Assembly (NCBI GenBank): GCA_963781885.1
Contig: CAWAHW010000006.1
Location: 32,001 to 96,000 of the forward strand
DNA: 64,000 nt
Direction of reading: 5' to 3'
Source: an uncultured Spirochaetota bacterium
GTDB lineage: Bacteria; Spirochaetota; Spirochaetia; SZUA-6; Fen-1364
Below the pieces are notes generated by a model, which did no database searches, was not told the DNA's origin, and was given only the letters and a program-made list of their open reading frames with translations. The position numbers and the translations under genes were made by a program. Below, piece after piece: positions 531 to 36,975 of the stretch. Position 1 is the stretch's first letter; every line of letters begins with the position of its first letter.

Positions 531-644
531 CCATAACATAGAGTTGAGCACCCGGCCCGCATCAAAGGGCAGATTGTGTACCGAGACGTTGGCGGCCGAT
601 TCAGGCCAAATTCTTGCCCGGAGTGCTCCAACGATTTGTTATGC
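531..644 (-). repeat. attC site (family A)
   Basis: taacatagagttgagcacccgg...ccggagtgctccaacgatttgtta. Confidence 0.93.
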
Positions 645-661
645 ATTCAACCTTCTGGCTG

Positions 662-1228
662 TCAGTCATCATTATCTCTTGCTGAAATTCTATTTCCTTC
701 CGTTGCCGGCTCAATCTGCGTTCTCAAGGCTGCAAGGCGTTCCTTTGCTGTTCCGGTTTCACGTAGGCCAAGACCCTTTCTCATCTGACCGCCAAAGCTG
801 TAATTGTTGCTGGCGCTTCCGTTCAGCAGCGTTGCTTCCTCGTCGGAGAGTATCACTACTTCAGTTTGGCTCATAATCTCATGGATGACTGCTTGGGAGA
901 CAACTTTGGCACTGGTCTTGGCCTTCAATAGCTCATTGAAAGTGGCCTCAATAGGCCATATGTGCTCATACATTACCTTCGCTGGTTCCTTTTGATATTG
1001 AATCCAGGCCCTCTTGGTAAAGCGAAAGTATCTTTTGTACAGGTCGAACACCTTATAAGGCTCCTGGCTATCCATGTCGAATTCCGGATAGTGTCTTATC
1101 AGAGTCTTTATGGTGACTTTGAATGCTGGCTTTGACAGCGTTTCGGCATCATAGCTATTCAGTATTTCAAGAAGCAGCCTTTCGCACAGACTCTGATACG
1201 GTGTAATGGACGAAGAGGCAGTTTCCAA
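662..1228 (-). CDS. Cassette hypothetical protein with YEHIWP (HNH-like) motif
   Basis: ORF fills cassette; likely TTG start at 1228 after AAGGAG; paralog at 17545-18073. Confidence 0.7.
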   Translation of the reverse strand: METASSSITPYQSLCERLLLEILNSYDAETLSKPAFKVTIKTLIRHYPEFDMDSQEPYKVFDLYKRYFRFTKRAWIQYQKEPAKVMYEHIWPIEATFNELLKAKTSAKVVSQAVIHEIMSQTEVVILSDEEATLLNGSASNNYSFGGQMRKGLGLRETGTAKERLAALRTQIEPATEGNRISARDNDD

Positions 1229-1370
1229 ATGGCGTTCTCCTTGCAAGTTGAATCAAGCAAATCAGGTTAGCAGGATTCAACTCCTCCTTAAAGGGGAAGA
1301 AAAGCGATGCAGTCTACGTGAGGAAATTGCAGCCTTTTAGCAAAAAGCGTCACCTACTTCACTCTTGAAT

Positions 1371-1485
1371 GCATAACATAGAGTTGACCAGCGCCGCCGT
1401 ATCAACCAGCACCACCCGACGATTAGGAAGAAGTTGGGTCTATCCAGATAAATTTCGAGGCGACTGGTCCAACGATTTGTTAGCC
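1371..1485 (-). repeat. attC site (family B)
   Basis: gagttgaccagcgcc...ggcgactggtccaac arms. Confidence 0.93.
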
Positions 1486-2256
1486 ATTTGGCGTCACCTT
1501 CGCGCCGCAAAGCTTCAGCAATGCAAAGTTGCCTTCATAGAAGTCCCCTGTCTGAGTTGCCGATTGAATTCGTGCAAGGCCTTTCCGATATTCCTTTTCG
1601 CTCAGGAGATTCAGCTGTGACATATCGCGGTTTCTAGCTTCTTCCAGCAACGAAGTCAAAGGAAAAGCCTTTTCGGTGATGGTCGTGGTCAGTTCCACGC
1701 TGAAGCCGCACTTTGCGAATGCCTTTCGCAGATGATCATTGCTCCAGAATCTCTGCCTATCAATTTTCCGTGCACCTTTGAAGTAGTGGTATACCCATGA
1801 CAGCGGCATCGCTTCGGGACAAATGTTCTTCATTTGGAAAACCCCACCTGGCTTCAAAATGCGGTGGAATTGGCTAATGCAGCTGACCTTACCTTGGAAA
1901 TGATGAAATGCAAAATTGCAGGTGACGAAGTCGAACTGCTCGTTGGGATATGGCAGATCCGCGGCATCAGCGGTTGTCAATTCGATACCATTTGCCAGCT
2001 TGGCCTTCGAAATAGAAAGCATGTCCAGAGACAGATCGCAGCCGTGCCACTTTATCCGCTTGTCGGGGAAATACTCTGTCTGGGCGAGGAGAAAGTTGCC
2101 AGTGCCGCAAGCAACATCCAGTATCAATATGGTTTTGTTTGTAGAAGAAAGAAGCCTACCTATGTGCGGCTCGGGGTCGTATTGAAGGCGAATGGGGTTC
2201 TTGTCGTAGACTTTTGCTATCGCCGAGTAGTCCGCAGTTTTCAAGAAGTTCTCCAT
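1480..2256 (-). CDS. Class I SAM-dependent methyltransferase
   Basis: LDVACGTGN, DAADLPY..FDFV motifs; stop codon in attC end. Confidence 0.9.
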   Translation of the reverse strand: MENFLKTADYSAIAKVYDKNPIRLQYDPEPHIGRLLSSTNKTILILDVACGTGNFLLAQTEYFPDKRIKWHGCDLSLDMLSISKAKLANGIELTTADAADLPYPNEQFDFVTCNFAFHHFQGKVSCISQFHRILKPGGVFQMKNICPEAMPLSWVYHYFKGARKIDRQRFWSNDHLRKAFAKCGFSVELTTTITEKAFPLTSLLEEARNRDMSQLNLLSEKEYRKGLARIQSATQTGDFYEGNFALLKLCGAKVTPNG

Positions 2257-2261
2257 TCCAA

Positions 2262-3580
2262 TGTCCTAACTAACACATCGTTGACACTTTTCGCAGCACA
2301 TCCTAACAGTTATCTCGCTGCCCTAACCAAGCGGCCGAGCTCATCCTGGATGCGCAGCTGCCGCTCGTCAAGATAGCCTAACAGGGTGTCGCGGTAATAC
2401 ACGCGCCACTTGCCCTTCACGATCTGCTCCAGTCCGACGTACTTCTCGATCAGCGTTGTGCTGACGACGACCCACTTGCTGGAGCCCCAGCGGATTGCCC
2501 CGTTGCGGCAAACGTATTTCGTGCACATGCCTTCTGGATACTTCCAGGTCCTAGTTATGCGTGGAAGGCGGCGAGGGGAGTGGCGGTAGAACTCCTTGGG
2601 CCTCCTCTGTCCCAGCGTCTGATGAGGACGCTGCACGTTGTAGAAATGACGAAAGGCGTCGAACTTGTGTTGCTGCTGGACCAGGCTGTAGGCGGCCGGC
2701 TTTGTGGCCTCAGCCTTTAGCTCTTCGTGCATCCGCTCGTGACTACCGTTCTGCTCGGGGTGAGCCGGGTCAGAATAGACCGGCTGGATCCCCAGATCCA
2801 TGAGCCAGACGGCAAGCCGCGTAAGCCGCGAGAGGCTCACCCCACTGGCGAAGGGCTCTCCGTTGTCACTGTGGATCTGTTTGGGCAAACCGTACTTCTT
2901 GAAAAGGGCCTCAAATACGGCCTTTGTGCCCTCATATGTGGGATTATGCATTCCCACCACCGCCAGCACAAAGCGGCTGTAGGCGTCCATGACGGTCAGC
3001 GGGTAGCAGTAGCGCCCGTCGCCCATGCGGAACTTCCCTTTGAAGTCCACGCTCCAGATCTCGTTGGGGGCCTTCGCCTCAAAGATCGGGTGCATCTCTC
3101 GAATGCGACGAACGCGGCGCCGCTTCTTGACTAGGCCATAGCGTTTGAGCACCAAGGCGATCGTCGCCACCGAAGGCACCTTCCGCCGACCACCATACCT
3201 CTCCGTGAGCAGCTGAAAGATCTTCAGCGGACCCATGCGAGGCCACCTGCCTCGTATTCGTATGATTGCCCGCTCGATGCTCGGTGCAGTGCGGTTCCAC
3301 ACCCGCCGCGGAGCCCGCGATTGCTCCTTGAGTCCCGCTACACCCCGCAACAGATAGCGCAGTATGTAGCGGTAACCTAAAGTACGGGAGATACCATAAG
3401 ATTTGCACAGAGCAGTGAACGTGTGCTGGCCTGACTCCCACTCAAGAACGAAACTAGCCTTTTCGTCCATCGCTGACCGTTCCCTCCAGGGCATCCCGCT
3501 CTCCTCTCGGAGAAAACGTCGCCCAAAAAAGTGTCAACGATGTGCTTAGAATTCTGTCAACGATGTGCTTAGACAGGACC
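2262..3580 (-). mobile_element. IS481-family insertion sequence
   Basis: Imperfect terminal IRs (tgtcctaactaacacatcgttgaca / tgtcaacgatgtgcttagacaggacc), CCAA(T) duplication; the empty site is seen in the paralogous cassette at 25945-25962. Confidence 0.9.
2310..3494 (-). CDS. IS481-family DDE transposase
   Basis: N-terminal HTH, WSVDFKG, SDNGEPF, PEQNGSHER rve motifs. Confidence 0.93.
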   Translation of the reverse strand: MPWRERSAMDEKASFVLEWESGQHTFTALCKSYGISRTLGYRYILRYLLRGVAGLKEQSRAPRRVWNRTAPSIERAIIRIRGRWPRMGPLKIFQLLTERYGGRRKVPSVATIALVLKRYGLVKKRRRVRRIREMHPIFEAKAPNEIWSVDFKGKFRMGDGRYCYPLTVMDAYSRFVLAVVGMHNPTYEGTKAVFEALFKKYGLPKQIHSDNGEPFASGVSLSRLTRLAVWLMDLGIQPVYSDPAHPEQNGSHERMHEELKAEATKPAAYSLVQQQHKFDAFRHFYNVQRPHQTLGQRRPKEFYRHSPRRLPRITRTWKYPEGMCTKYVCRNGAIRWGSSKWVVVSTTLIEKYVGLEQIVKGKWRVYYRDTLLGYLDERQLRIQDELGRLVRAAR

Positions 3581-3587
3581 CCAATAT

Positions 3588-3703
3588 GGCTAACATAGAG
3601 TTGACCAGCGCCGCCGCATCATCCAGCCCCACCCCGACGATTAGGACAAGGTTGGGTCTAAACAGACAAATTCTCAGGCGACTGGTCCAACGATTTGTTA
3701 TAG
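3588..3703 (-). repeat. attC site (family B)
   Basis: Family B arms. Confidence 0.93.
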
Positions 3704-4369
3704 GGCGTCTTGATTCTGAAGATATCCAAGCTTTTCTAGACTGGACCGGTTGTTCTCAATATCTTTTAGGGTTCCATTCACCAATACATTGATCCTTGAA
3801 GATATGCCTTGGACGTTGAGATAGAGATGATCACTTATCAGGACTATCTTCCCGATACTGGCTTGGCGGATGCGATCTTGAAGTACTTCGCAATATAGCG
3901 GTTCTATCTGCGAAAAAGGTTCGTCCAATAGGTAAATGTCTCTATCCAAAGACAAAGCAATCAGACACTCAACGTACCGAATCTCGCCTACGGAGAGAAC
4001 GCGGGCACGTTTTTTCAATAGGAATCTGGCTCTTGAATCAGCTTCTAGAATGGACCAATTGCCGAGTCTGCCTAAAATCAGTTTTGCGCTCTGCTCAAGA
4101 CGTAGATCGAAAGGAAGAAAGCTGTTCTGTGGCAGATAGCCTATATGCTTTGGCGCAGCGTTCTTGTTGATATGTTTTCCATTAATACGCATCAAGCCGT
4201 TCGATGATCTATGCTGTCCAAGCAAACACTTGTAAAGGGTTGATTTACCGGAACCGTTTCGACCGAGAATGCCAATTATGTCACCGTCCCTTGCTTCGAG
4301 GTAGACATTTGAAAGTACCCTTCGTTGATCGAATGCTATTGATAAGCTGTCCACGTAGAGAGAGCTCAT
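3698..4369 (-). CDS. ABC-type ATP-binding protein
   Basis: GRNGSGKST Walker A, LSVGE signature, LLDEPF Walker B; ATGA overlap with upstream gene. Confidence 0.88.
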   Translation of the reverse strand: MSSLYVDSLSIAFDQRRVLSNVYLEARDGDIIGILGRNGSGKSTLYKCLLGQHRSSNGLMRINGKHINKNAAPKHIGYLPQNSFLPFDLRLEQSAKLILGRLGNWSILEADSRARFLLKKRARVLSVGEIRYVECLIALSLDRDIYLLDEPFSQIEPLYCEVLQDRIRQASIGKIVLISDHLYLNVQGISSRINVLVNGTLKDIENNRSSLEKLGYLQNQDAL

Positions 4370-4704
4370 TGACGAAACAGCCCCATGAGGGTGGATCCAG
4401 CAAATCCAAATAGACTCGCAATCGGAACTATCAATAAGAAGCCAGATGCGAAAACAGTGTGAAAGTGCATTCCACGGACTATATAAATGGACAGTTCCCT
4501 TCTGCAGAGCCAAGTGTATAGCAATACCGAGAAAGCATAGCCAATAGTGCATGCGATAAGTAGGAAGCCAATGCCCACCTCAGATACAATCGTGGTCCAG
4601 TCTGTCCCCGAGCGGTGGGCAATCCATAGCAAAGAGGCGCCGGCAGCGGATACGGGCACGTCGTAGGAGAGAATACGCTTGATGTAATGCCAGATCAGCC
4701 GCAT
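4366..4704 (-). CDS. Small membrane protein coupled to ABC ATPase
   Basis: Three hydrophobic segments; 4-nt overlap. Confidence 0.7.
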   Translation of the reverse strand: MRLIWHYIKRILSYDVPVSAAGASLLWIAHRSGTDWTTIVSEVGIGFLLIACTIGYAFSVLLYTWLCRRELSIYIVRGMHFHTVFASGFLLIVPIASLFGFAGSTLMGLFRQ

Positions 4705-4732
4705 GGCTCAGTAACGCCCCCGATGTGACGCC

Positions 4733-4849
4733 CTATAACATGGAGTTGAGCACCCGGCCCGCATCAGACAAAAACCACAAAGACTGGCACCGGAAGCGGG
4801 TCTATTGGAGCAGATTCTTAGCCCGGAGTGCTCCAACGATTTGTTATGT
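4733..4849 (-). repeat. attC site (family A)
   Basis: Family A arms. Confidence 0.93.
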
Positions 4850-4875
4850 CCAATCTATTTTCAAATGGCGTTAGG

Positions 4876-5292
4876 TCATCCGTTAGTTCGTTCTGTGTTC
4901 TTCATTATTTCCCAAAACTGTCTTGGCTGTATGATCGGAATGCCTTTGTGCTTCTTGAGTACTAGCAAGTCCTCATCCCCAGTAATGATGTAATCTGCCA
5001 ACGCTTGTTCAGCAAGGGCAATGATATGGTCATCATTTTGATCCCTTGAAATGCGTTTGCCTAGCGGTTTGACATGAAAAACAGTTGAATGCTCTTTTAG
5101 GTATTCAAGGGTGTCTTGGATAGTTTGAGGTGGAACTTTTAGCTTCCGTTTCAACGCGTCAGCTATCTCGTTAAGTATTTCCGAACTCAGGTATAGATCT
5201 TGCTGGTCCAGGCACATCTCAAATACAGCATGACATAGTCCCTGCGTGGCGAATGCTGCAACTATCACGTTTGTGTCTAGCACAACTTTCAT
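4876..5292 (-). CDS. PIN-domain toxin
   Basis: MKVVLDTNV, RDQNDD, ITGDEDLL. Confidence 0.9.
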   Translation of the reverse strand: MKVVLDTNVIVAAFATQGLCHAVFEMCLDQQDLYLSSEILNEIADALKRKLKVPPQTIQDTLEYLKEHSTVFHVKPLGKRISRDQNDDHIIALAEQALADYIITGDEDLLVLKKHKGIPIIQPRQFWEIMKNTERTNG

Positions 5293-5507
5293 GATATGGT
5301 GCGAAAGACATCCTCGTCCGTAAGGATTCCTTGTGCTCCAGCAAAAGGTAGAACAGTGTTGCGGAGCCGCCGAAAGTTATAGACTGAGACAAATTTCTGA
5401 ATTGACTCCCGAACAAGGTCGCTTATGGGTTTAGCTTCGTTGTCGCTTATTTGCTGCAGTTCTTTCCGCAATTCATCGGGCAGCCGTACTGTAACCGCTT
5501 GTTTCAT
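5289..5507 (-). CDS. CopG/RHH antitoxin
   Basis: VTVRLPDEL RHH start; overlaps the toxin. Confidence 0.85.
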   Translation of the reverse strand: MKQAVTVRLPDELRKELQQISDNEAKPISDLVRESIQKFVSVYNFRRLRNTVLPFAGAQGILTDEDVFRTIS

Positions 5508-5525
5508 GGGTCACCTCGTACCCGT

Positions 5526-5554
5526 AACGTACTACGTTGTCATACATTTGTCAA
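5526..5554 (-). promoter_or_regulatory. sigma70-like promoter of TA cassette
   Basis: TTGACA-N17-TACGTT. Confidence 0.6.
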
Positions 5555-5663
5555 GTATTCCAGCTTGCTTCCCGCCTATCGAGGTAAAGATATCAATCTG
5601 CCCGAAATGTATCAGAAAGGTGGTTTTCTCAATCAAATTTGTACGAAAACAGACTCTGATTGG

Positions 5664-5779
5664 ACATAACACAGAGTTCAGTACCCGGCCCGCATCAGAA
5701 CGGCACCACAGAGATTTGCACCGGCCGCGGGTCTATTCGACAAGATTCTAGCCCGGAGTACTGCAACGATTTGTTATGC
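5664..5779 (-). repeat. attC site (family C)
   Basis: gagttcagtacccgg...ccggagtactgcaac arms. Confidence 0.93.
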
Positions 5780-5828
5780 GGACCCTCTTTCCTATAGTTC
5801 TTGGTTTCATTCTACGTGTTTGCCACAG

Positions 5829-6269
5829 TCATCTATTCAGACAATCATTCAACTGAATTTCCATGTTCTTAAGATTCAAGTCATCGTTTCTCTTTAATAT
5901 GGAGGCTATCACGGCCTCCCGATGCTTGTTGTCTGCATGCAGTTCAAATTCGTTTGTCCACCTCAACAGTGTTCCTTCACTACAGTCCGATAGTCTCTGA
6001 ATAGACAGTTGGTAGATGAAAGGAGGCATGGGCTGCCTTCGTTGGATGATTATGGCAAAAGCTTCTGGGATAGTAATCCTTTCTATCTCAACGTCACCTA
6101 TTCCTTCTACCTTTGAAACAGACCGCATAAGTCGGTCATTGTGAAATAGTACGGTGGTGTTGCGTCCAAAGTTAGGATCAATGGCCTTCATAAAGTCAAT
6201 TGACGCGATCTGTTTGAAAACTGCTTCTTTGGGAAAGCTGAATAGCACTTGTTCTTCAATTCTCGGCAT
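5829..6269 (-). CDS. SRPBCC/cyclase-like protein
   Basis: 146 aa, GTLLRWTNEF and C-terminal helix pattern; RBS. Confidence 0.6.
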   Translation of the reverse strand: MPRIEEQVLFSFPKEAVFKQIASIDFMKAIDPNFGRNTTVLFHNDRLMRSVSKVEGIGDVEIERITIPEAFAIIIQRRQPMPPFIYQLSIQRLSDCSEGTLLRWTNEFELHADNKHREAVIASILKRNDDLNLKNMEIQLNDCLNR

Positions 6270-6473
6270 AAAATCCTCCCGTGGATTGTCTATGCCTTTC
6301 CTGGCGGACGACGTTTGCTATCTGGGAAGGCTACTATTATTACACGATTGGCCGCTTCTTGTCAATGCGCAGACGGTCGGGAGGAGTATCTGGCCTCGAT
6401 TTGGCGCTTTTCGATATTACTTTCAGAGGTGATCTGCTGATCAACTCCGTCGGTAGATCGGCACATTGGGGCC

Positions 6474-6588
6474 GCATAACATAGAGTTGAGCACCCGGCC
6501 CGCATCAGACAAAGATCACAAAGATTGGCTCCGGAAGCGGGTCTATTGGAGCAAATTCAGCCTGGAGTGCTCCAACGATTTGTTAGGT
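6474..6588 (-). repeat. attC site (family A)
   Basis: Family A arms. Confidence 0.93.
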
Positions 6589-7266
6589 GCAAAGGATTTC
6601 TGCGATGCAATTTAAGTGCTTTAGGACAAGAATAGTGGCTAAGGATGCAAAGGCAACGAACCAGACAAGCGATGCACCAAGTGCAATACCCATGTCGATC
6701 TTCATTAAGCCGCCGCGGACTTCGTTCAACTTATGAGCGCTGTGTATGGCACAGTTAGGCTCGGGATACCGCTCATTCCCAAAATATACAACTCCCTTGT
6801 CTTCCTCTAGAAGTGTAGCTCCGCCTGGGTATCTATCGACGTGCGGTGAAGGTTTGCCGAAGATATGAGATTCCAAAACAAAGTATTGGAGGGGAATGCC
6901 TTTTTGGGCGAGTTTGAATTCTATAGCCCGAAGGGATCGCCTGCAAAACTCAAGAAAGTGATGTTCCTTTCGAATAAGCCGGTTCCAAGTTATTGATATG
7001 AAGATCCCGATGACGGCAACGCCTGTCGCGATAAGGAGTTGATATTCTTCAATTGGGGGTTTTGATAAAGTTGCAAGGAAGCCGACAAAAAGCGCCGCTT
7101 GAATCCCCATCATTAGTATTTGGACTCTTTGGAAATAGACATCGGTCTGCTTTTTCCATATCTCCAAATTTGTGTTGTAGGCTTGTATAAGAACCTCCTC
7201 ATTACAGTCAGACTCATTCTGCATGCGCCTTCGTCTAATTTGAGCGCTTTTTGTCTTTGTGAGCAT
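6583..7266 (-). CDS. Membrane protein (3 TM), possibly RipA-like
   Basis: Y..R-TM-TM-W..LRAIE pattern; fills cassette. Confidence 0.65.
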   Translation of the reverse strand: MLTKTKSAQIRRRRMQNESDCNEEVLIQAYNTNLEIWKKQTDVYFQRVQILMMGIQAALFVGFLATLSKPPIEEYQLLIATGVAVIGIFISITWNRLIRKEHHFLEFCRRSLRAIEFKLAQKGIPLQYFVLESHIFGKPSPHVDRYPGGATLLEEDKGVVYFGNERYPEPNCAIHSAHKLNEVRGGLMKIDMGIALGASLVWFVAFASLATILVLKHLNCIAEILCT

Positions 7267-7429
7267 AGGACAACTCCTTAGGTTTTTGGTTTCTCACATT
7301 AATTTGGAAGGCGCGTTTGTCCGCTATTGGGCGGCCTATGCGGCAGAAGCATGGGACATTGCGTTGCGAAATATTGGCTGGCGTAGTCGCTTGGCGGGAA
7401 TATGCAAGTTGCCGACTATTCGCCTTTGC

Positions 7430-7544
7430 ACCTAACATAGAGTTGACCAGCGCCGCCGCATCAAACAGCCCCACCCGACGATTAGGAAAAAGTTGGGTCT
7501 GAACAGGCAAATTCCAAGGCGACTGGTCCAACGATTTGTTACAC
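7430..7544 (-). repeat. attC site (family B)
   Basis: Family B arms. Confidence 0.93.
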
Positions 7545-7747
7545 GCCCCTCTATTTTTTGCACCTTACTACTATTGAGGCTTGTATTTCCTGACACCTTT
7601 TAATAAACCATGGACAACTCCGCAAACAATGCGGTACGCTGTTTTCGCTCGTTTCGTGGCAAGAGCGCGCTAGTCTTACACGGATATTTAGCGAGCTTTA
7701 GTTGAGAGTGTCAAAAATGCAACACGACCCGCTGCTGACTGTGGTTC

Positions 7748-8125
7748 TTATAGTCCTTTTCGAAGGGCAATCTCAATTGCCTTAAGCACAACTTTGCTGG
7801 AGTACGAGGCGTCCGAAATGGCATCAACTTGTAAGGATTGTTGCGCTATCACTTCGGGAATAATGGCATCTGCGCCATGGTTCGGCCCATGGTTATGTTC
7901 TAGTAGTTGAATACTGTTTACTCTGCCTCCACTTACTGAGACACTGACCTTTGCAGTCACCATCCAGTTGTCTTGGAGACCTTCATATTGTCCATCCCTA
8001 ATAGTTGAAAAATCTAGATTTGCGATTTCAAGAGCCTTGATAGCTGCAAGATTCTTGCAGCTTGAAATCGAAAGGATTGTCAGAAGAGAAAGCAAGGAAA
8101 TTACTAGAGCTTTAGCCTTTGACAT
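7748..8125 (-). CDS. FMN-binding domain lipoprotein
   Basis: Lipobox ISSC, DGQYEG, VDAISDASYSS; GGAGG RBS. Confidence 0.85.
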   Translation of the reverse strand: MSKAKALVISLLSLLTILSISSCKNLAAIKALEIANLDFSTIRDGQYEGLQDNWMVTAKVSVSVSGGRVNSIQLLEHNHGPNHGADAIIPEVIAQQSLQVDAISDASYSSKVVLKAIEIALRKGL

Positions 8126-8356
8126 ATGTCCTCCGGTGGTGCGACGCAATGTTTCGGTCTTCCTCATTGAGGCTTCTTGTCGGTGTCTACTAAATGTAAC
8201 ACCTCTTGCCAATGAATCTGTTTCCTCTCGAAGAATGCACCTCGGCGTGGTGTTTCCGCATTGAAAAAGGCGAACTTATGAGAAGGTACTATGTCCGGGG
8301 CAAAAGCGCTAGCTATTGCCGAAAGGGTGCATCTGACGATTCGAGGTATTTGGGGC

Positions 8357-8473
8357 GTGTAACATAGAGTTGACCAGCGCCGCCGCATCAGCCGGCACCG
8401 CCCCGACGATTAGGATGAAGTTGGGTCTATCCAGACGAAATTTTCAGGCGACTGGTCCAACGATTTGTTAGCG
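8357..8473 (-). repeat. attC site (family B)
   Basis: Family B arms. Confidence 0.93.
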
Positions 8474-8493
8474 TCTTCAGAGATCCTTGGAGC

Positions 8494-9312: not shown

Positions 9313-9353
9313 TGGGAATCCTCCTTAGGTAAGATTTGGTCAGTTTTGAATGA

Positions 9354-9468
9354 CGCTAACATAGAGTTGACCAGCGCCGCCGCATCAAGCGGCCCAAACC
9401 CGACGACTAGGAAGACGTTGGGTCTATCCAGAAAAATCTAAGGCGACTGGTCCAACGATTTGTTATGC
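9354..9468 (-). repeat. attC site (family B)
   Basis: Family B arms. Confidence 0.93.
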
Positions 9469-10099: not shown

Positions 10100-10199
10100 C
10101 TGTCTTCTCCTTTTTTCTGACGTTTGGTTGTGGCCTTTGGAGTTCTGCTACAAGAAATTGTATGTCGATCTCTCTTAACGATGCAAGATCCCTATGAAC

Positions 10200-25947: not shown

Positions 25948-25955
25948 TCCAATAT

Positions 25956-26760: not shown

Positions 26761-26768
26761 TCATTCCG

Positions 26769-28116: not shown

Positions 28117-28230
28117 CCGCTTTTGTCTGAACTATTGGCAAGGTCTGGAACCCTCTTATTGTCAATTTGCTTTGGTCATTTGGAGTTGGGTCTTTACGGA
28201 TGTATTCACAAAGCTACGGCACATTCATTT

Positions 28231-28710: not shown

Positions 28711-28744
28711 ACGGTTACCTACTCTTAATCCTTGGAATGAATGA

Positions 28745-28860
28745 GGCTAACATAGAGTTGAGCACCCGGCCCGCATCAGACAAAAACCACAAAGATTTGC
28801 ACCGGAAGCGGGTCTGCTGGACCAAATTCTAGTCCGGAGTGCTCCAACGATTTGTTAGAT
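28745..28860 (-). repeat. attC site (family A)
   Basis: Family A arms. Confidence 0.93.
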
Positions 28861-28925
28861 GCTCCGCGATTTCAATCGATGTTTGTCTATTCGTGTCAAT
28901 TCCTGCTAGTAGAAAGGAAAGCGCC

Positions 28926-29315
28926 TTAACGCCAGTCCTCCAAACTCAGCCCGGGAATGCGTTCAAAGTGCTTGGTGTTCCCGGTAATAAGCTTTTCTGC
29001 CTTTTCAAGCGTAGCTGAAGCTATAAGGATATCAGCATCCGCGATCGGCATTCCCGCATTCTGAAGCTGGGCCTTGATGGTTCCGAATCGTTTTAAGATG
29101 CTGAGATCGGACTGCACTATTTCAAGCGTTAGAAGAAGCCTTTCTACTGTGTCGATATTCCTGGAAGGGTCACTCGACTTTTGAGCTCCATAAAAGAGCT
29201 CGGCTATTGTCATGAAACAAACGCCTATTGGCCCATCATACTCTTCACGTCGGCGGAGGATCTTTTTGTTTCCTTTCAATAGGTCGATGCAGACATCAGT
29301 GTCTATCAGGATCAT
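28926..29315 (-). CDS. vapC: VapC PIN toxin
   Basis: LIDTDVC, DILIA, TGNTKHF. Confidence 0.92.
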   Translation of the reverse strand: MILIDTDVCIDLLKGNKKILRRREEYDGPIGVCFMTIAELFYGAQKSSDPSRNIDTVERLLLTLEIVQSDLSILKRFGTIKAQLQNAGMPIADADILIASATLEKAEKLITGNTKHFERIPGLSLEDWR

Positions 29316-29599
29316 AGCTGCACGTCACGGCCACCCGTTCTGTGGGTATAGATGTCTTCAATTATCTCCTTTGCGGATCGGCTATCCTCCCAGGTACCCG
29401 CCAAACGTTTCCAGATCTCAACCTGAGTAGCCTTTGAGAGATACTTGCGCTTTTGCAGTTTGTCCTCATACTCATCATATGTTCCCCGCTCGAGGATCAC
29501 GAGAATCTCGTTGTTGACACTGCGCTTCTCTATTGAAGAAAGTGCTTTGATCTTCCCAAGCACGTCATCAGGTATGTTGCGAACCGTAATGCTTGCCAT
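29312..29599 (-). CDS. FitA/Arc-like RHH antitoxin
   Basis: MASITVRNIPDD..RSVNNE. Confidence 0.88.
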   Translation of the reverse strand: MASITVRNIPDDVLGKIKALSSIEKRSVNNEILVILERGTYDEYEDKLQKRKYLSKATQVEIWKRLAGTWEDSRSAKEIIEDIYTHRTGGRDVQL

Positions 29600-29679
29600 A
29601 GTTACAATATAGTTATATTTCAGCACCACGTCAAGAGAGACCGTTTACCCGCAAGTGAGAATGCTCCTTATCTTGGAGC

Positions 29680-29795
29680 ATCTAACATAGAGTTGACCAG
29701 CGCCGCCGCATCAGCCAGCTGCACCCCGACGATTAGGACGAAGTTGGTTCAAATCAGATAAAATCTAAGGCGACTGGTCCAACGATTTGTTAGAA
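29680..29795 (-). repeat. attC site (family B)
   Basis: Family B arms. Confidence 0.93.
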
Positions 29796-29825
29796 GGGCG
29801 CTCTTTTGCCGCCGTAAAGGATGAC

Positions 29826-30464
29826 CTACCACCTGTTGATGTGAATATGTTCTTTCGGATTCGGTTTGTGCTGTTTTATCCTTTTTGCGTTCTTGTCAGG
29901 ATAACCAAGTGCCAAGTAGCAAGGAATAGAGTAGTCTGCTGGGATTTCAAGTACGTCATGTAGAACGCGAATCTCCTTGTCAAAAGGAATTCGCGTCACG
30001 CCGTAGATACCTTCCGAAGCGGCCGCAAGAAGAATGTTTTCAATACAACACCACATTGAAGCGAATCCATTCAGTGATGATAAGCTTCTTGGCTTCAAAA
30101 GAGGCAGAGGTTGCTTATAGCACGGCACTATCAAAACAGGCGCGTTCAAAAGCATTTTATACTGCTTGGGAATGGCGTCAATGTACATTTCCCTTTGCTT
30201 AACGTCGGTCATTCCAGATTTGGAAAGAAAAGCTTCTGCCTGCTGCGGACTCAAGTCTTTTCTAATAGAAGAGATTGCTGATAGTCGAGTGTCCATATCA
30301 GTCAAGACCAAAAACTCCCACTGTCGAAGGTGGTAATTGGTTGGCGCGCGGAGGCCAGCAGCCAGAAGTCTTTGAAGAGCTGCTTTCGGTAACTGCTTTT
30401 TGGAGAAGTCACGGACAGTTCTTCGTTGATTGATTGCTTTGTAGAGGTCCATCCTTGTCCTCAT
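29826..30464 (-). CDS. Nitroreductase family protein
   Basis: RRTVRDF, APT..RQWEF, ENILLAA, LGYP. Confidence 0.92.
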   Translation of the reverse strand: MRTRMDLYKAINQRRTVRDFSKKQLPKAALQRLLAAGLRAPTNYHLRQWEFLVLTDMDTRLSAISSIRKDLSPQQAEAFLSKSGMTDVKQREMYIDAIPKQYKMLLNAPVLIVPCYKQPLPLLKPRSLSSLNGFASMWCCIENILLAAASEGIYGVTRIPFDKEIRVLHDVLEIPADYSIPCYLALGYPDKNAKRIKQHKPNPKEHIHINRW

Positions 30465-30570
30465 CTATATATGGTGGTTTGATGCAAATCCTTGGAATGG
30501 ATTTGATATTGCATCAGACAGCCACCCAACGCAATTGCGCAGAAGCCTGGAGGCAGGGAATCCTTGCGCC

Positions 30571-30686
30571 TTCTAACATAGAGTTGACCAGCGCCGCCGC
30601 ATCAGCCGGCCGCGCCCCGACGATTAGGAATACATTGGGTCAAGACAGACAAAATCTAAGGCGACTGGTCCAACGATTTGTTAGAT
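30571..30686 (-). repeat. attC site (family B)
   Basis: Family B arms. Confidence 0.93.
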
Positions 30687-30687
30687 T

Positions 30688-31491
30688 TCAGGCTCTTTTT
30701 GATGCCTTCTTGGGCTTGACGTAGAAATATTTTAATACCCTTTTTATCAAGTCTTCAAGAGTGTTGAAATCTGCTATTACTTGTGGATGAAGATATACAA
30801 AATGGGATTTCTCTGAGAAAGAGTGTACATAAAAAGGGCTAGCCTTACCTAATCCGACAAGCTCATCTATTGTTGCAGTATAGCGCTCTGAATAGCCCTG
30901 TTTCGACAGAACGGTCAGACTATCGCTAAGTTTCTTGAAGCGCCTTTGATCACGTTTGCCTAAACCGGACGGAGGAACATAGGGAGGTATACGGTGGGCT
31001 AAAGCATCTCGGAAGTTTTTTGCATAATCATTGTACCAGGATAACATCTTAGCGCCAGATAGGTAGGTCCTTAAGCGCGGGCTCAGTTTCTCTCTGAAAT
31101 CATTTTTGAAGAACCCAACCGAATATGTTGCCTGTCTCTCTGGCTTTGCACTTGAAACTAGCTCGTTTTCAAAGGCAAGTGACAAGGCTAGATTCTCTAT
31201 CACTCCATAGGTATTAATCAAAAAAGCATGTAAGCTGATCTCGAGATCTAATCTGTCTTCATTTGTCAGCTTTTCGGCCCTGCTCGGAGGAAAAAGCCGG
31301 AATATATTTTCGACGCATCTGTTTATGATAAACAAACGCCGAGTTACACCGTTGGATAGGTATTCGATTGCACGAGCATTATTCATTTTGCCTGAGAAGG
31401 CCTGAAGATTCATTACGAGATCATAGTGTTTGAATCTAAGGCTATGTATTTGCTGCTCGATTTTTGCCAGTGCGGTAGGCGTATAGTGCAT
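30688..31491 (-). CDS. Hypothetical protein with HEPN-type RxxxxH motif
   Basis: FRDALAHR in a helical protein. Confidence 0.7.
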   Translation of the reverse strand: MHYTPTALAKIEQQIHSLRFKHYDLVMNLQAFSGKMNNARAIEYLSNGVTRRLFIINRCVENIFRLFPPSRAEKLTNEDRLDLEISLHAFLINTYGVIENLALSLAFENELVSSAKPERQATYSVGFFKNDFREKLSPRLRTYLSGAKMLSWYNDYAKNFRDALAHRIPPYVPPSGLGKRDQRRFKKLSDSLTVLSKQGYSERYTATIDELVGLGKASPFYVHSFSEKSHFVYLHPQVIADFNTLEDLIKRVLKYFYVKPKKASKRA

Positions 31492-31504
31492 TGTCTCTCC
31501 TGAA

Positions 31505-31618
31505 ATCTAACATAGAGTTCAGCACCCGGCCCGCATCAGATTGCACTACGCCGATTTGCACCGAAAGCGGGTCTATTCAAGGAAATTCAGCCTGGAGTGC
31601 TGCAACGATTTGTTATGT
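31505..31618 (-). repeat. attC site (family C)
   Basis: Family C arms. Confidence 0.93.
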
Positions 31619-31959
31619 TCAAGGCAGAATGGACTTGTAGTCTACGCTATGCAGAAGTCAATTCCTTTGGCCAGAATTGCGTCCGTAGGTTTTGCCAAGA
31701 GCGGCGTTGCCACGGTCTGCGGGGATTGGGCAATAGGTACGGGCGCAAAGCCGAGCGCGGCTCTGTTTCCCGCTGCGTCCGGACTGAACGGAAGAGAAGA
31801 AATACTTGATCGTCCAAGCTTGGGCACCGGACAGAAAAAGTCTTTCGGACCAGAGGCCGCGATGTTTCAGAGGCCCAAATGAACCTAACCTCTTGAAGAC
31901 TCTTCAACTATCCAAAGATTCGAGAAGAAGGTAAAAGTTCAATTTCCTTCGAACATAAC
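31612..31959. repeat. Gene-less cassette type 1, copy 4
   Basis: Homologous to 13035-13383. Confidence 0.85.
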
Positions 31960-32067
31960 ATAGAGTTGAGCACCCGGCCCGCATCAAAGGGCAGATTGTG
32001 TATCAGAGACGTCGGCGGCCGATTCAGACCAAATTCTAGCCCGGAGTGCTCCAACGATTTGTTAGGC
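31953..32067 (-). repeat. attC site (family A)
   Basis: Family A arms. Confidence 0.93.
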
Positions 32068-32076
32068 AATTCCCGA

Positions 32077-32961
32077 TTAATCCTCCAGCGCAAGGAACCA
32101 GACAGGTCGTAGGGGAAAGAGCCTGCGCTGGTCCTCTGGGATATCCTTGTAGTGCTCAACCCAGAGGTCAAACAGCCGCCTAGAGTCAAGTAGCATCAGA
32201 CGGCGCTTCTCTTGCCCTCTGGCCTCGGTTTCTGCGTCTGAAGTAAATCCAGCAGTAGTAACGAAGATGCCGATATCGTCTTCACCTAGTAGCGCCATAA
32301 AAGAGCGAATTTCGGCAACGTTTATCTTGTCGGCGCGACGCTTAACTTGAACTTTGATTCGGCCCCCCTGAACACCAAGCGGGTCTTGGTGTGCGATCAC
32401 GTCCACGCCTTTATCTGCTCCCGGAGGTGACACCCACGACACGTGATAGCCCATGCCTCTAAGCAAACCAGCAACAAGTTCCTGAAAGTCATATGGATTC
32501 ATTGCACCGAGATGCTCCTGTATTTCAGCCCAAGCGGCTTCCTCGGATTGTTCCAAGGTGGCACTTGGGCCAGGAGATTCATTAGCATCTTCAGCGTCTT
32601 GATCATCTGGTTGGCCCTTCTTCCATTGTCGATATAGTTTGGCTGCTTGTCTCATGAAGTCGGCGGGGTCCTTGTACTTGTCGTAAGCCGTTTTGCCTTC
32701 CTCGGTGATCGTCCACTGCCCCTTGTTTTTTTGCATCCAGCCTGCTTTTACCGGGCCTATTGTGGAGAACCTGACTATCTTTTCGAAGCGTCGGATATCG
32801 GGCCGCTGAGGATAGTAGCTCTTCTCGAACTCGGTGAGCTCCATCTCTTTGGAGAGAAGATCAAGCGCCTTGCTAGCTGGCACTCCATCTGGATTTCGCA
32901 TCAGTATCTCGAACAGCTTCCGTATCAGTTCTCCGGAACGCTTGCGTGTTGTCTCAGCCAC
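32077..32961 (-). CDS. mrr: Mrr-family (type IV) restriction endonuclease
   Basis: N-terminal wHTH, DFQELVAGLL, DKGVDV, VQVKR, FVTT..FT. Confidence 0.9.
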   Translation of the reverse strand: MAETTRKRSGELIRKLFEILMRNPDGVPASKALDLLSKEMELTEFEKSYYPQRPDIRRFEKIVRFSTIGPVKAGWMQKNKGQWTITEEGKTAYDKYKDPADFMRQAAKLYRQWKKGQPDDQDAEDANESPGPSATLEQSEEAAWAEIQEHLGAMNPYDFQELVAGLLRGMGYHVSWVSPPGADKGVDVIAHQDPLGVQGGRIKVQVKRRADKINVAEIRSFMALLGEDDIGIFVTTAGFTSDAETEARGQEKRRLMLLDSRRLFDLWVEHYKDIPEDQRRLFPLRPVWFLALED

Positions 32962-32992
32962 TTCTTACCTCCACCACCGTGACCTTTGAATT

Positions 32993-33106
32993 GCCTAACA
33001 TAGAGTTGACCAGCGCCGCCGCATCATCCAGCCTCACCCGACGATTAGGACAAAGTTGGGTCTATCCAGACAAATCCAAGGCGACTGGTCCAACGATTTG
33101 TTATGT
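32993..33106 (-). repeat. attC site (family B)
   Basis: Family B arms. Confidence 0.93.
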
Positions 33107-33128
33107 TCAGCCTGGTTCCGAATGGACC

Positions 33129-33890
33129 TCAGACGGCTGGAAGTCCACATTTAATTCGATATTCGTTGATTATCTCACGCTCCCGAGGCGGATAATTCTG
33201 CTGGCGGACTTCCCAAAGCTGCGGATTGCTCTCCGGCATGAGTAGAACGCTGCTATTGCAAGCTATGGAATCGAGCATCCGGACGATATCCGGCCTGCTA
33301 TCGCTGCCAACTGGGTGCACCACGTTAGGAGCATAGGACAGGGGGACGAACAAGTTCTCCAGGTTGAAACACAGGCAGTTGTAGATTCCGTTAAGGCTGT
33401 CTCTGATAGAATCAATTTCTGTGATATGAAGCCATTCAATTTGCGTTCGATCGAGGAGTGAGGATTGATTCAAATGGGCGATCTGGTTGTTTCTGATTCT
33501 ATCAGCCTTTTGTAGTAGCTCCCGTTGTTTCTTTTCAATTCGCGCCTTACGCAAGTGAGTTCGGTACTCCATTGCAAACTGCTCTTTAACATGCGTTGCA
33601 ATATCATTTTTGAATTTGGGGAGGCTGTAGGCTTTTGATTCATTGTCAAGCAAGAGCCGATGTGTAATTGTGATGACGACCTCCATTCCGTTTAGAATTG
33701 TCATGTAAAAGAAGACGTTCCCGTTGCCGTCTCCGAACAACCAAAAAGGGAAATTGATGACCTTGTCCAGTATAAATACCGTTGTGTTAAGTTGCACCAT
33801 CTCTGAGAAAAACGCGGTCTGCGCCATTTGGTACTGCTGGAGATAGTTGTTTTCGAGAACTTGCTCGGCTGGTAGAGGAAAGCAGTCCAT
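33129..33890 (-). CDS. HEPN (AbiU2-like) domain protein
   Basis: RLLLD..YSL, IRNNQIAH. Confidence 0.68.
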   Translation of the reverse strand: MDCFPLPAEQVLENNYLQQYQMAQTAFFSEMVQLNTTVFILDKVINFPFWLFGDGNGNVFFYMTILNGMEVVITITHRLLLDNESKAYSLPKFKNDIATHVKEQFAMEYRTHLRKARIEKKQRELLQKADRIRNNQIAHLNQSSLLDRTQIEWLHITEIDSIRDSLNGIYNCLCFNLENLFVPLSYAPNVVHPVGSDSRPDIVRMLDSIACNSSVLLMPESNPQLWEVRQQNYPPREREIINEYRIKCGLPAV

Positions 33891-33948
33891 GATTACATCT
33901 CCAGTTCTTGGTTGACGCCAACTTAGTCACTTACCCGTCTTTGGCTGA

Positions 33949-34062
33949 ACATAACATAGAGTTCAGCACCCGGCCCGCATCAGATTGCACTACGCCGATT
34001 TGCACCGAAAGCGGGTCTATTCAAGGAAATTCAGCCTGGAGTGCTGCAACGATTTGTTATGT
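33949..34062 (-). repeat. attC site (family C)
   Basis: Family C arms. Confidence 0.93.
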
Positions 34063-34404
34063 TCAAGGCAGAATGGACTTGTAGTCTACGCTACGCAGAA
34101 GTCAATTCCTTTGGCCAGAATTGCGTCCGTAGGTTTTGCCAAGAGCGGCGTTGCCACGGTCTGCGGGGATTGGGCAACAGGTACGGGCGCAAAGCGGAAT
34201 GCGGCTCTGTCTCCCGCTGCATCCGGACTGAACGGAAGAGAAGAAATACTTGATCGTCCAGGCTTGGGACACCGGAAAGAAAAAGTCTTTCGGACCAGAG
34301 GCCGCGATGTTTCAGAAGTCCAAATGAACCTAACCTCTTGAAGACTCTTTAACTATCCAAAGATTCTGGAAGAAGGTGAAAGTTCAATTTCCTTAGAACA
34401 TAAC
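34056..34404. repeat. Gene-less cassette type 1, copy 5
   Basis: Near-identical to 13035-13383. Confidence 0.85.
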
Positions 34405-34512
34405 ATAGAGTTGACCAGCGCCGCCGTGTCAACCAGCACCACCCGACGATTAGGAAAAAGTTGGGTCAATCCAGACAAATTCTCAGGCGACTGGTCCAAC
34501 GATTTGTTAGAA
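34398..34512 (-). repeat. attC site (family B)
   Basis: Family B arms. Confidence 0.93.
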
Positions 34513-34555
34513 GGCGGACCGTAGTCCGATTGGATCTGGCCTTATTGCTTGTACG

Positions 34556-35131
34556 CTACCAAACCCAAGGTATTAGCTTCTTTGTATTCCTTCTGTATTC
34601 TGAATAGTCCGATCCTATGGACGTAACCATGGCGGCTTCTTCCACATGAATTCTGTATATGAGCGCTGCCAGTGGAAGCAAGACCGCAATCGCAAGCGAA
34701 AGCCAGTTTTGGACGGCAATGCCATATCCACAACACATAAGAATCAATCCGCTGTAGGAAGGATGTCGTATCAGTTTATAGGGGCCCTTTCTTATTACTT
34801 TCTGACTGTCATGTGTTTCAACAGTTGTGCGGAACGAAGTGCCCAATGTGGCAACAGCCCATATGCGTAGCGCTAATCCCAAAAGCATAATAAACAGACC
34901 GATCCCGAAAACAGTATCCGACCTCCCGCCTGGGAAAAAGAACATTGAAAAGCCATTTGTGAGAGCCGCTCCGGTGATACCGACAGCCATTGCAATCAGA
35001 TTGAAGTATCGAGTGCCGCGGTCGTCTTCAGTCTTGCCTCTGCCGCGGGCACGATCACGAAGCATCAGCCAGATTTCAAACGCGATCCAAATAGCCGAAA
35101 CTACTGCCAGCAAGGTAAAGAATAGGGCCAT
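34556..35131 (-). CDS. Isoprenylcysteine carboxyl methyltransferase family protein
   Basis: GPYKLIRHPSYSG, RIHVEE. Confidence 0.88.
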   Translation of the reverse strand: MALFFTLLAVVSAIWIAFEIWLMLRDRARGRGKTEDDRGTRYFNLIAMAVGITGAALTNGFSMFFFPGGRSDTVFGIGLFIMLLGLALRIWAVATLGTSFRTTVETHDSQKVIRKGPYKLIRHPSYSGLILMCCGYGIAVQNWLSLAIAVLLPLAALIYRIHVEEAAMVTSIGSDYSEYRRNTKKLIPWVW

Positions 35132-35216
35132 TGGGTCTGCCTTTCAGCCGATCAAGAAAGTCTCAAACAGGTAGACAGAGCATACCTTTTTTGAACGAGA
35201 ATGTCTTTGGGCCGCC

Positions 35217-35331
35217 TTCTAACATAGAGTTCAGTACCCGGCCCGCATCAAAACGGCACCACACCGATTTGCACCGGCAGCGGGTCTTCCCAGATGAGTT
35301 CACGCCGGAGTACTGCAACGACTTGTTAGAC
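35217..35331 (-). repeat. attC site (family C)
   Basis: Family C arms. Confidence 0.93.
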
Positions 35332-35381
35332 CCCGATCCCTTCTATCGAGGAAAGTATCGGCATATCAGATCTTTCGTTTA

Positions 35382-36023
35382 TCAGAGTTTGATTCCAATT
35401 ATGATATTGGGAAGTACGTATAAGTTAGGGAAATGAAAAGCTGGATTCGTTTGCTCTATTTGGCTGAAGCTTGTTGGTTCATTGCTTTTGTAAATGTCGA
35501 AGCCAACAATTGCCTCTGGGCAAATGTAAAATGAGAGCATTCCGAGCTTGAAGTCTATCTGATAACCAAGATGGATTTCATTCCAGATTTCAAAACTATT
35601 GGCAGAAATGCTGGCATTGTTGTCAGTGTAATGAGCGATTCCTGGGAGTAGAATGTATTCGGCGTACAGGCCAGCCCATAGATGGCGCTTGTAGCCTAAG
35701 ATTGGCGAAAGAAGCAGATAGCTTCCGGGATAAGCGCCTCCGAAAAGGGCATTTGTTCCATAGAGAGAATAGAAGCCGGTAACGAGCTGATCTTGCGGCG
35801 TTAGCTGAAAAAGATACCTAAGAAAGTAGATGCCAAAGAACGGATCTATTGCGCTAGTCTCAATGGCATTCCGGAGTGGGACTACCGGGGTTGTTTGCAT
35901 TGCCTGTTGGTCTGCAAGTGAAGCGATGCACCGGGCGGAGAAAGAAAGGGGCTCCGCGCCGATAAAAATCACTTGAAGAAGGAAAGTGATAATCAGAAGC
36001 GGAAGCATTTTGCGCACCTTCAA
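35382..36023 (-). CDS. Secreted hypothetical protein, possible beta-barrel
   Basis: Signal peptide, aromatic alternating strands. Confidence 0.65.
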   Translation of the reverse strand: MKVRKMLPLLIITFLLQVIFIGAEPLSFSARCIASLADQQAMQTTPVVPLRNAIETSAIDPFFGIYFLRYLFQLTPQDQLVTGFYSLYGTNALFGGAYPGSYLLLSPILGYKRHLWAGLYAEYILLPGIAHYTDNNASISANSFEIWNEIHLGYQIDFKLGMLSFYICPEAIVGFDIYKSNEPTSFSQIEQTNPAFHFPNLYVLPNIIIGIKL

Positions 36024-36125
36024 GAACCTCCAGTGGTCGTTTCGGCAAACACATTTCTGAAGTTCGGAGATAGTACTGCGGAAAGGTCATGTAATTCCAC
36101 TGGCCGAATGCCAAAATCTATCGGG

Positions 36126-36240
36126 GTCTAACATGGAGTTGAGCACCCGGCCCGCATCAGACAAAAATCACAACGATTTGCTCCGGAAGCGGGTCTAATG
36201 GAGCAAATTCAGCCTGGAGTGCTCCAACGATTTGTTAAAC
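36126..36240 (-). repeat. attC site (family A), first cassette
   Basis: Family A arms. Confidence 0.93.
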
Positions 36241-36490
36241 GGCTCCTGATACCCTTGGCACAAATCTGCTGGAATCCCAGAACGCCATGCCGTGTGATCC
36301 CTTGTCGGCTTCGTGCTGCTCAAATCCTGTTGTTGTTGATAGAGCTTTGCCGCATTCGACCAAGAAGCTAAGGTATCGCGACTTGCCCCCAGCTTCCTTA
36401 AGCCTAGGTTGGGATGTTCTGCTATCTGTTGCAAGGCTTGGCGCCTACATCTGTGTTGCCCTCGGTCCGGAGAATCCGTTCACGTTCAAA

Positions 36491-36724
36491 TCACTTCTTC
36501 TCAAGTAGCTTGTTTAGAAATGATACGTCATTTTCTAGTTGAAGCATCTTTTCGTTCTTGTCATTAATCAGTAGTTCCAGATGTGCTACCTTTTTCTCCA
36601 TTTCGTCAACTTTCAATTTTGTCTCGTTGTCCAACCTATTTCTTCTTTTTGTAAGAAAGTCAAAACCTGAGGCAAAAACCGTCATTAGAACAACTCCGCC
36701 GACTATGATGAATGCAAGGCCCAT
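36491..36724 (-). CDS. Small membrane-anchored coiled-coil protein (first cassette)
   Basis: N-terminal TM + heptads; AAGGAG RBS. Confidence 0.75.
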   Translation of the reverse strand: MGLAFIIVGGVVLMTVFASGFDFLTKRRNRLDNETKLKVDEMEKKVAHLELLINDKNEKMLQLENDVSFLNKLLEKK

Positions 36725-36942
36725 ATAGTTCTCCTTTGCCGTGAACCGACTAGAAGCACTATTCACGCTACCAAAGAAAAGAAGCTAATTCCGGTTGCTT
36801 AGCTTTGACGATTCGCTAAAGACGGTTGCAGAAATGGAGTAGCATGTTTGCTTCACCATGGCAATATCCGAAAACAACACAAAGCCGCATTTAGACTACC
36901 AAGATGCGTTCGATGTCAACGAGTCGCCTTTTTCGGGAATTT

Positions 36943-36975
36943 GGAGCCGCTTAACAATATATTAGAGCGTTTTGG
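36943..36975 (-). other. Putative attI site (crossover G/TT at 36955)
   Basis: - strand CTCTAATATATT-GTTAAGC; GTTAAGCGGCTCC matches the first cassette's end gttaaacggctcc at 36234; no attC arms upstream. Confidence 0.8.

Follow-up and report, generated by a model that had tools for sequence, protein, structure and literature searches.

Models of attC sites in integron cassettes generally use an R box of 7 bp that is derived from the integrated state, as described in passages of PMC5371416, and the passages of Bouvier 2009 (PMC2727003) considered here, citing Rowe-Magnus 2003 and Sundstrom 1991, report that most cassettes self-pair over 9-11 consecutive nt. According to the same passages, tyrosine recombinases bind arms of 9-13 bp, and the integron integrase IntI touches the folded attC chiefly via backbone phosphates. 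Here we analysed a window of 64,000 nucleotides from an uncultured Spirochaetota bacterium (GCA_963781885.1, contig CAWAHW010000006.1, positions 32,001 to 96,000), in which a chromosomal integron spans positions 535-36955 (all positions are those of the window). Its cassettes begin with the reverse complement of their own ends; these repeats make up the R arm of the attC belonging to the cassette itself, a site that exists only in the excised circle, and their pairing is a longer, sharper, quantitative variant of a known feature, not special in kind. Extended pairing as such was already published by 2009 at the latest, which makes the present finding a refinement.

Self-pairing of cassette ends

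Across the 41 cassettes, perfect self-pairing measured 5 bp in one, 9 bp in ten, 11 bp in four, 12 bp in eight, 13 bp in 14 and 14 bp in four, thus at least 9 bp in 40 and at least 11 bp in 30. If one mismatch or 1-nt bulge is allowed, provided that at least three matches come after it (one-defect score), all 41 fall within 11-14 bp (11 bp in four, 12 bp in eight, 13 bp in 25 and 14 bp in four). This agrees with the initial annotation, which had reported inverted repeats of this length around nearly every cassette, and all eight examples quoted there were recovered at their positions, each matched by its reverse complement at the opposite end of the cassette. It had mentioned a few imperfect pairs, an understatement, as 11 of the 41 cassettes carry a defect before position 11, ten of them at position 10. 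After reduction to 34 distinct cassettes, the one-defect score had a median of 13 and a standard deviation (SD) of 0.73. A partial cassette left of position 535, cut by the window edge, was excluded from scoring.

Non-self end pairings averaged 4.86 bp, and only 10 of 1122 non-self pairs reached 11 bp with one defect. Of 394 other GTTA..TAAC pairs lying 250-2200 bp apart, two reached 11 bp. None of 100,000 random re-pairings attained the observed mean of 11.8 bp, the maximum being 6.7, and in the integrated state the end of the neighbouring cassette offers 4.9 bp on average. The pairing is therefore specific to each cassette's own ends. Between families, the arms of the 34 unrelated cassettes showed no excess similarity at positions 5-13 (p=0.11 and 0.08), consistent with the cassette-specific nature claimed initially. 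A shared ancestry of the ends was thus unsupported over this interval, one of six tests (5' arm, positions 8-13) giving an uncorrected p of 0.005. Terminal inverted repeats of a transposon or miniature inverted-repeat transposable element would share one repeat sequence, which these arms do not. Furthermore, open reading frames (ORFs) run through the arm to the TAA of R'' not only in the ABC ATPase (3698) and the 6583 ORF, as previously pointed out, but also in a methyltransferase (25171).

Comparison with other integrons and recombination sites

For comparison we scored 74 distinct Vibrio cassettes (of 84 shorter than 1100 bp) from seven loci (L082 and L091-L096), 48 cassettes from 22 scorable loci among 80 mostly distant IntI loci of diverse taxa obtained by a genome scan, and nine clean class 1 cassettes out of 17 rows, the eight rows spanning a missed or spurious site being dropped. 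Control segments longer than 1100 bp were discarded (10 of 66 in one Vibrio scoring round, 7 of 55 for the diverse taxa), while window cassettes were used without a length filter; L081, which ends at intI, was left out, and no attC was found in L097, a Treponema plasmid. The attC detector misses sites, which shortens the control values; this biases the controls downward, yet too little to hide the Vibrio mode at 9.

Perfect pairing in Vibrio had a median of 9 bp, with 68 of 74 cassettes reaching at least 8 bp, and stepped down after position 9 (60 of 68 reach position 9, 32 of 60 reach position 10). The diverse taxa showed a median of 7.5 bp, or 9 bp with one defect. Among the class 1 cassettes, aacA4, aadB and aadA2 paired perfectly over 12 bp, blaVIM-2 over 11, blaIMP over 8 and dfrB1 over 7, and aac(6')-IIa over 8 bp or, with a mismatch, 12 bp. 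Here, 32 of 34 distinct cassettes reached 12 bp with one defect, compared with 13 of 74 in Vibrio, and the window exceeded Vibrio in both measures (Mann-Whitney, p=1e-8 for perfect pairing and 4e-13 with one defect). A one-defect score above 14 occurred in one of the 74 Vibrio cassettes and in none of the 48 from diverse taxa. The initial view that a slight extension beyond the R box is confined to some mobile cassettes is therefore not supported, given the 9-11 nt reported for most cassettes in the cited passages and the agreement of all three controls. Of the initial proposal to compare length distributions, with generality counting against anything special, the generality of extended pairing was largely borne out, and the window nevertheless stands out by its length.

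The pairing resembles that described in Bouvier 2009 in that most cassettes show a complementarity of their own start and end past the 7-nt R box; it differs in length, with 26 of 41 cassettes perfectly paired over at least 12 bp and thus beyond the described range, in its tightness (SD 0.73 versus 1.65 in Vibrio), in the single position, 10, at which defects are tolerated, and in the abrupt end of pairing after 13. With Vibrio superintegron-type arrays it shares attC cores that are long and homogeneous, pairing that hardly varies up to position 9, and purine-rich flanks, but its pairing is longer. The longest class 1 cassettes approach the window values, although class 1 cassettes are heterogeneous in length, of mixed origins and mostly equipped with short attC sites. 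Like canonical tyrosine-recombinase sites, the folded circular site consists of two 13-bp arms around an unpaired spacer of 5+5 nt; unlike in those sites, its arms arise from a single folded strand and have no fixed sequence apart from GTTA, and the R arm is present in the circle only. A literature search that left most subscription papers outside its reach, and that included passages of PMC5027507, PMC5371416, PMC3053210, PMC3607928, PMC7439510, PMC12614218, PMC8352920, PMC8946536, PMC8618304 and PMC4792948, returned no 13-bp arm, position-10 tolerance or scramble test of positions 8-13, which is weak evidence of absence.

Two further observations concern the Vibrio loci. L082 (28334-41115 of MK672802.1), deposited as a Vibrio phage, holds intI and about 15 attC sites, i.e., part of a host superintegron. 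In a 505-bp Vibrio cassette family (eight copies in L091, L092, L093 and L095, 79-97% identical), the ends are identical over more than 20 nt, beyond the 9-bp stem.

Shape, maintenance and possible origin of the R arm

In the circle, cassette start and cassette end are connected on the bottom strand across the attC core and pair into a 13-bp stem of 9 bp, one tolerated position and 4 bp. Past one mismatch at position 6, pairing runs through position 9 in 33 of 33 cassettes, and six of the seven R-arm defects among the 34 distinct cassettes lie at position 10. Pairing resumes after this position up to 12-13 and then drops to chance level; with one defect allowed, 24 of 32 arms reach position 13, 4 of 24 reach position 14 and none of four position 15. 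The L arm of the same attC has paired segments of 3, 6 and 4 bp, separated first by an extrahelical C and then by an extrahelical A, giving 13 bp in 37 of 41 sites (ten with one G.T pair, as read from printed rows) and 14 bp in four; in all 41, 9 bp precede the second extrahelical base. The circular site is thus pseudo-symmetric: the R arm copies the 9+1+4 layout of the L arm, its tolerated position 10 matches the second extrahelical base, and three of four bulge types lie on the symmetry-equivalent strand, the one ending in AAC. With an R arm of 11-14 bp and an L arm of 13-14 bp flanking the spacer, the site has arms of the length expected for a tyrosine recombinase, and a symmetric functional site of 13 + 13 bp on the circle is indicated.

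We consider it probable that the arms are a sequence-free duplex with the footprint length of one integrase monomer, selected at re-integration. The monomer on the R side would need a duplex, whatever its sequence, that roughly matches its footprint; cassettes whose own ends provide this duplex would re-integrate at attI more often and persist, and selection at the level of the cassette would lengthen and maintain the pairing, with a limit at about 13 bp. Most integrons would then fill 9-11 bp of the footprint, and this lineage nearly all of it, in line with an R-arm length at the top of the 9-13-bp range and its sharp stop. The arms themselves may first have arisen by stepwise compensatory change or by a one-off templated copy. 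If confirmed, the symmetric 13 + 13 bp site with its tolerated position provides a simple rule for cassette boundaries and for spotting damaged or foreign cassettes, explains part of the integration bias and constrains models of cassette birth.

The cliff after position 13 might also be a footprint of birth, in which one end served a single time as template for the other while attC was folded into its hairpin, by fold-back synthesis or template switch, leaving a tract of about 13 nt that selection has since only maintained. Cassette formation is called 'largely unknown' in passages of PMC5371416. Each of the 34 unrelated cassettes having its own arm fits such an event, and a fixed tract predicts the chance-level step to position 14 (4 of 17), but a selective plateau limited by the footprint yields the same cliff, and tract length is broad in Vibrio and other taxa. 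Base composition outside the stem is suggestive as well. On the top strand, which is the minus strand of the window because intI on the plus strand and the position of attI orient the array, purines occupy 86 of 102 positions at 14-16 of the cassette start and 152 of 204 at 14-19 of the end (bulk 0.51), and in 25 of 34 cassettes the two bottom-strand bases that face each other at position 14 are both pyrimidines. The bias persists across the boundary between 3' flank and arm (0.75 to 0.61) but reverses at the edge of the 5' arm (0.39 to 0.84), as if the 5' arm had been pasted. Vibrio cassettes have similar purine-rich top-strand flanks beyond the stem, which at the cassette start may partly reflect ribosome-binding sites. 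Faithful copying leaves the clustering of defects at position 10 unexplained, and in the methyltransferase, the only family searched, the residues encoded by the arm belong to a variable tail of 9-18 aa that follows the conserved part of the protein (48 of 50 rows, the other two being incomplete), which weakly points to the opposite direction of copying. Overall, we regard a birth footprint as unlikely. A more specific version, in which a one-step, hairpin-templated reaction builds the new cassette by copying one end from the other on an attC bound by integrase, whose footprint sets the tract length, and leaves the 13-nt tract, its sharp edge and the purine-rich flanks (top-strand positions 14-19 at either end) as a scar, appears to us doubtful; if it holds, cassette birth would stay recorded in arrays of this kind with hardly any decay, and cassette genesis would be directly testable.

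Paralogous cassettes allow a view on maintenance. In four families of the window that are 89-99% identical, and with the 5' end of cassette 1 excluded owing to its IS481 copy, positions 5-9 and 11-13 show no change against 5.45 expected (Poisson P=0.004), position 10 shows two against 0.68, and positions 14-30 show ten against 11.6, i.e., the rate of the cassette body. Neutral decay among homologues, which the initial annotation had envisaged as a counter-argument, is therefore not observed. Static arms that are nearly perfect would also follow from ongoing repair, proposed initially, in which, each time a cassette is mobilised, its excised circle folds and one arm serves as template to correct the other. 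In the five dispersed copies of the 349-bp cassette, however, the position-10 bulge is kept with three different bases (T, T, T, A and G), and it is present in both methyltransferase copies; mismatches persist in cassettes 4, 27 and 40, and one Vibrio pair differs by an uncorrected change in one arm. Defects are thus not erased, and copy-correction at every cycle is excluded, because copying would remove a bulge that survives in variable form in five dispersed copies; we hold ongoing repair to be highly improbable. Selection for a full integrase-binding duplex is favoured because the paired bases are static among paralogues while the position-10 bulge changes and persists.

The long IntI of this locus offers a further explanation, in which an extra N-terminal domain binds beyond the R box and demands 13 bp. 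This N-terminal extension is conserved in most of the 120 homologues listed and is predicted with confidence to form a four-helix bundle on a flexible linker. Loci with a homologous extension nevertheless show arms of 8-9 bp (9 and 8 in L003; 8 in L020; 9, 9, 9 and 8 in L072), and class 1 cassettes reach 12 bp with a short IntI, so that a link from a long IntI to 13 bp is not supported; we judge a lineage-specific requirement very unlikely.

In favour of integration over excision, the initial annotation had expected the circular attC to be more stable than the integrated one, and folding with DNA parameters and 25-nt flanks supports this: the median gain in stability of the circular junction is 9.2 kcal/mol (range 0.1-13.8), about 6.0 of which come from bases beyond position 7. 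R-box pairing probability rises from 0.74 in the integrated to 0.98 in the circular site, and seven of 41 integrated but no circular sites fall below 0.5. As the integrated arm pairs over only about 5 bp with the neighbour's end, excision should be damped relative to integration, and these models make a bias toward integration plausible in direction. The top strand folds more stably than the bottom strand in 31 of 41 circular junctions, contrary to the usual trend.

Several points weigh against selection for a footprint-length duplex. The probability of the whole recombinogenic fold in the free single strand increases only slightly between integrated and circular sites (median 0.38 to 0.44), and many natural cassettes circulate with 7-9 bp of pairing. 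None of the paralogue pairs showed a compensatory change involving both arms, so that selection on pairing is deduced from the stasis of four families alone. Moreover, conservation in three Vibrio families extends to about 30 nt, past the paired part, and end conservation therefore need not reflect pairing. Finally, in other taxa R-arm length was not correlated with L-arm length (rho 0.18, p=0.25; 44 of 53 cassettes scored with a crude measure), and the R/L mirror is thus established only in this array.

Integrase, attC array and cassette content

IntI matched TIGR02249 with 403 bits (cut-off 265), placing an IntI-class tyrosine recombinase next to the array; its best PDB match was 2A3V (VchIntIA), and the few named relatives among the 120 homologues belong to Spirochaetia. 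The start of the first cassette (36955) borders non-attC sequence upstream of intI, as expected for attI. A motif scan yielded 41 attC cores, and an independent structural detector recovered exactly these on the minus strand, with no plus-strand site; all 41 have AAC/GTT triplets, spacers, an L''/L' repeat and two extrahelical bases 6 nt apart on the same arm, within the 57-141 bp range of attC sites. The GC content of the array is about 48%, compared with 60-69% in the flanking genome, and its cargo is typical of integron cassettes. Four cassette families recur at separate array positions, an indirect sign, at the level of sequence, of excision and integration by the predicted IntI. The Rfam scan gave no match, and a second array of the same lineage was found neither by blastn of one window attC against plasmids nor by tblastn with the N-terminal extension of IntI.

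Table 1 Integron features and cassette arms in the window; arm lengths are those of cassette self-pairing.
Feature	Position	Strand	Details
intI	37065..38444	+	integron integrase, 459 aa, N-terminal extension ~140 aa; TIGR02249, structure match
attI	36953..36985	-	crossover triplet 36953-36955, outer limit approximate; abutted by first cassette without attC core between
41 attC cores	535..36236	-	AAC..GTT, 106-109 bp; plus strand is bottom strand; motif scan and structural detector
Cassette 0	638..1377	-	arms 638-650 / 1365-1377; 13 bp perfect
Cassette 1	1479..3594	-	methyltransferase + IS481; 13 bp, bulge at 10
Cassette 2	3697..4739	-	ABC ATPase, stop codon in R''; 13 bp perfect
Cassette 3	4843..5670	-	PIN toxin pair; 13 bp perfect
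Cassette 4	5773..6480	-	13 bp, mismatch at 10
Cassette 5	6582..7436	-	8xMP, stop codon in R''; 14 bp perfect
Cassette 6	7538..8363	-	12 bp perfect
Cassette 7	8467..9360	-	13 bp, bulge at 10
Cassette 8	9462..10206	-	13 bp perfect
Cassette 9	10307..11101	-	ORF inverted; 13 bp perfect
Cassette 10	11204..12052	-	inverted Gp49/HTH pair; 13 bp perfect
Cassette 11	12154..12934	-	Fic; 12 bp perfect
Cassette 12	13035..13383	-	349-bp family; 13 bp, bulge at 10
Cassette 13	13486..14604	-	12 bp perfect
Cassette 14	14707..15332	-	12 bp perfect
Cassette 15	15433..16096	-	NUDIX; 14 bp perfect
Cassette 16	16199..17050	-	13 bp perfect
Cassette 17	17152..17408	-	256-bp family; 11 bp perfect
Cassette 18	17511..18221	-	paralogue of cassette 0; 13 bp perfect
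Cassette 19	18323..19092	-	PemK pair; 11 bp perfect
Cassette 20	19193..19541	-	349-bp family; 13 bp, bulge at 10
Cassette 21	19643..20354	-	ParE; 13 bp perfect
Cassette 22	20456..20711	-	256-bp family; 11 bp perfect
Cassette 23	20813..21618	-	13 bp perfect
Cassette 24	21719..22621	-	Gp49/HTH pair; 14 bp perfect
Cassette 25	22722..23072	-	349-bp family; scored 11 bp perfect; family alignment puts extra base at 10
Cassette 26	23174..24096	-	inverted DinB; 12 bp perfect
Cassette 27	24197..25067	-	methyltransferase; 13 bp, mismatch at 10
Cassette 28	25170..25962	-	methyltransferase, stop codon in R''; 13 bp, bulge at 10
Cassette 29	26064..26651	-	14 bp perfect
Cassette 30	26754..28751	-	GNAT + IS481; 13 bp perfect
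Cassette 31	28854..29686	-	PIN/FitA pair; 12 bp perfect
Cassette 32	29789..30577	-	nitroreductase; 13 bp, bulge at 10 on opposite arm
Cassette 33	30680..31511	-	13 bp perfect
Cassette 34	31612..31959	-	349-bp family; 13 bp, bulge at 10
Cassette 35	32061..32999	-	Mrr; 12 bp perfect
Cassette 36	33100..33955	-	HEPN AbiU2; 13 bp perfect
Cassette 37	34056..34404	-	349-bp family; 13 bp, bulge at 10
Cassette 38	34506..35223	-	ICMT; 12 bp perfect
Cassette 39	35325..36132	-	13 bp perfect
Cassette 40	36234..36955	-	first, next to attI; 13 bp, mismatch at 6

The N-terminal extension of IntI (37065-37480) has a linker of about 40 aa and a helix pattern resembling that of a SAM domain. BLASTP against a SAM domain gave no alignment (E=3.5), and comparison of the predicted structure returned only generic helical bundles (best Z 9.2) and no DNA-binding fold. 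In all 41 attC sites, the extrahelical bases of the bottom strand read A-N6-C, the complement of the usual T-N6-G; A-N6-C sites do recombine according to passages of PMC3053210.

Both IS481 copies (2258-3585 and 26760-28115) border an arm at a cassette end on its outer side. Around the first lies a 5-bp direct repeat corresponding to arm positions 10-14 (2258-2262, 3581-3585), as confirmed via the paralogous cassette 28, and around the second a candidate 7-bp direct repeat at arm positions 7-13 (26760-26766, 28109-28115), for which there is no empty allele. Possibly, IS481 targets the stem base of the cassette arm, on which a literature search found nothing.

Four near-identical attC cores (12932, 19090, 31509 and 33953) are each joined to a copy of the 349-bp cassette, suggesting that core and cassette move together. 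The 349-bp (five copies) and 256-bp (two copies) families lack a long ORF and are possibly promoter or RNA cassettes; by eye, their ends show an apparent imperfect complementarity beyond 13 bp.

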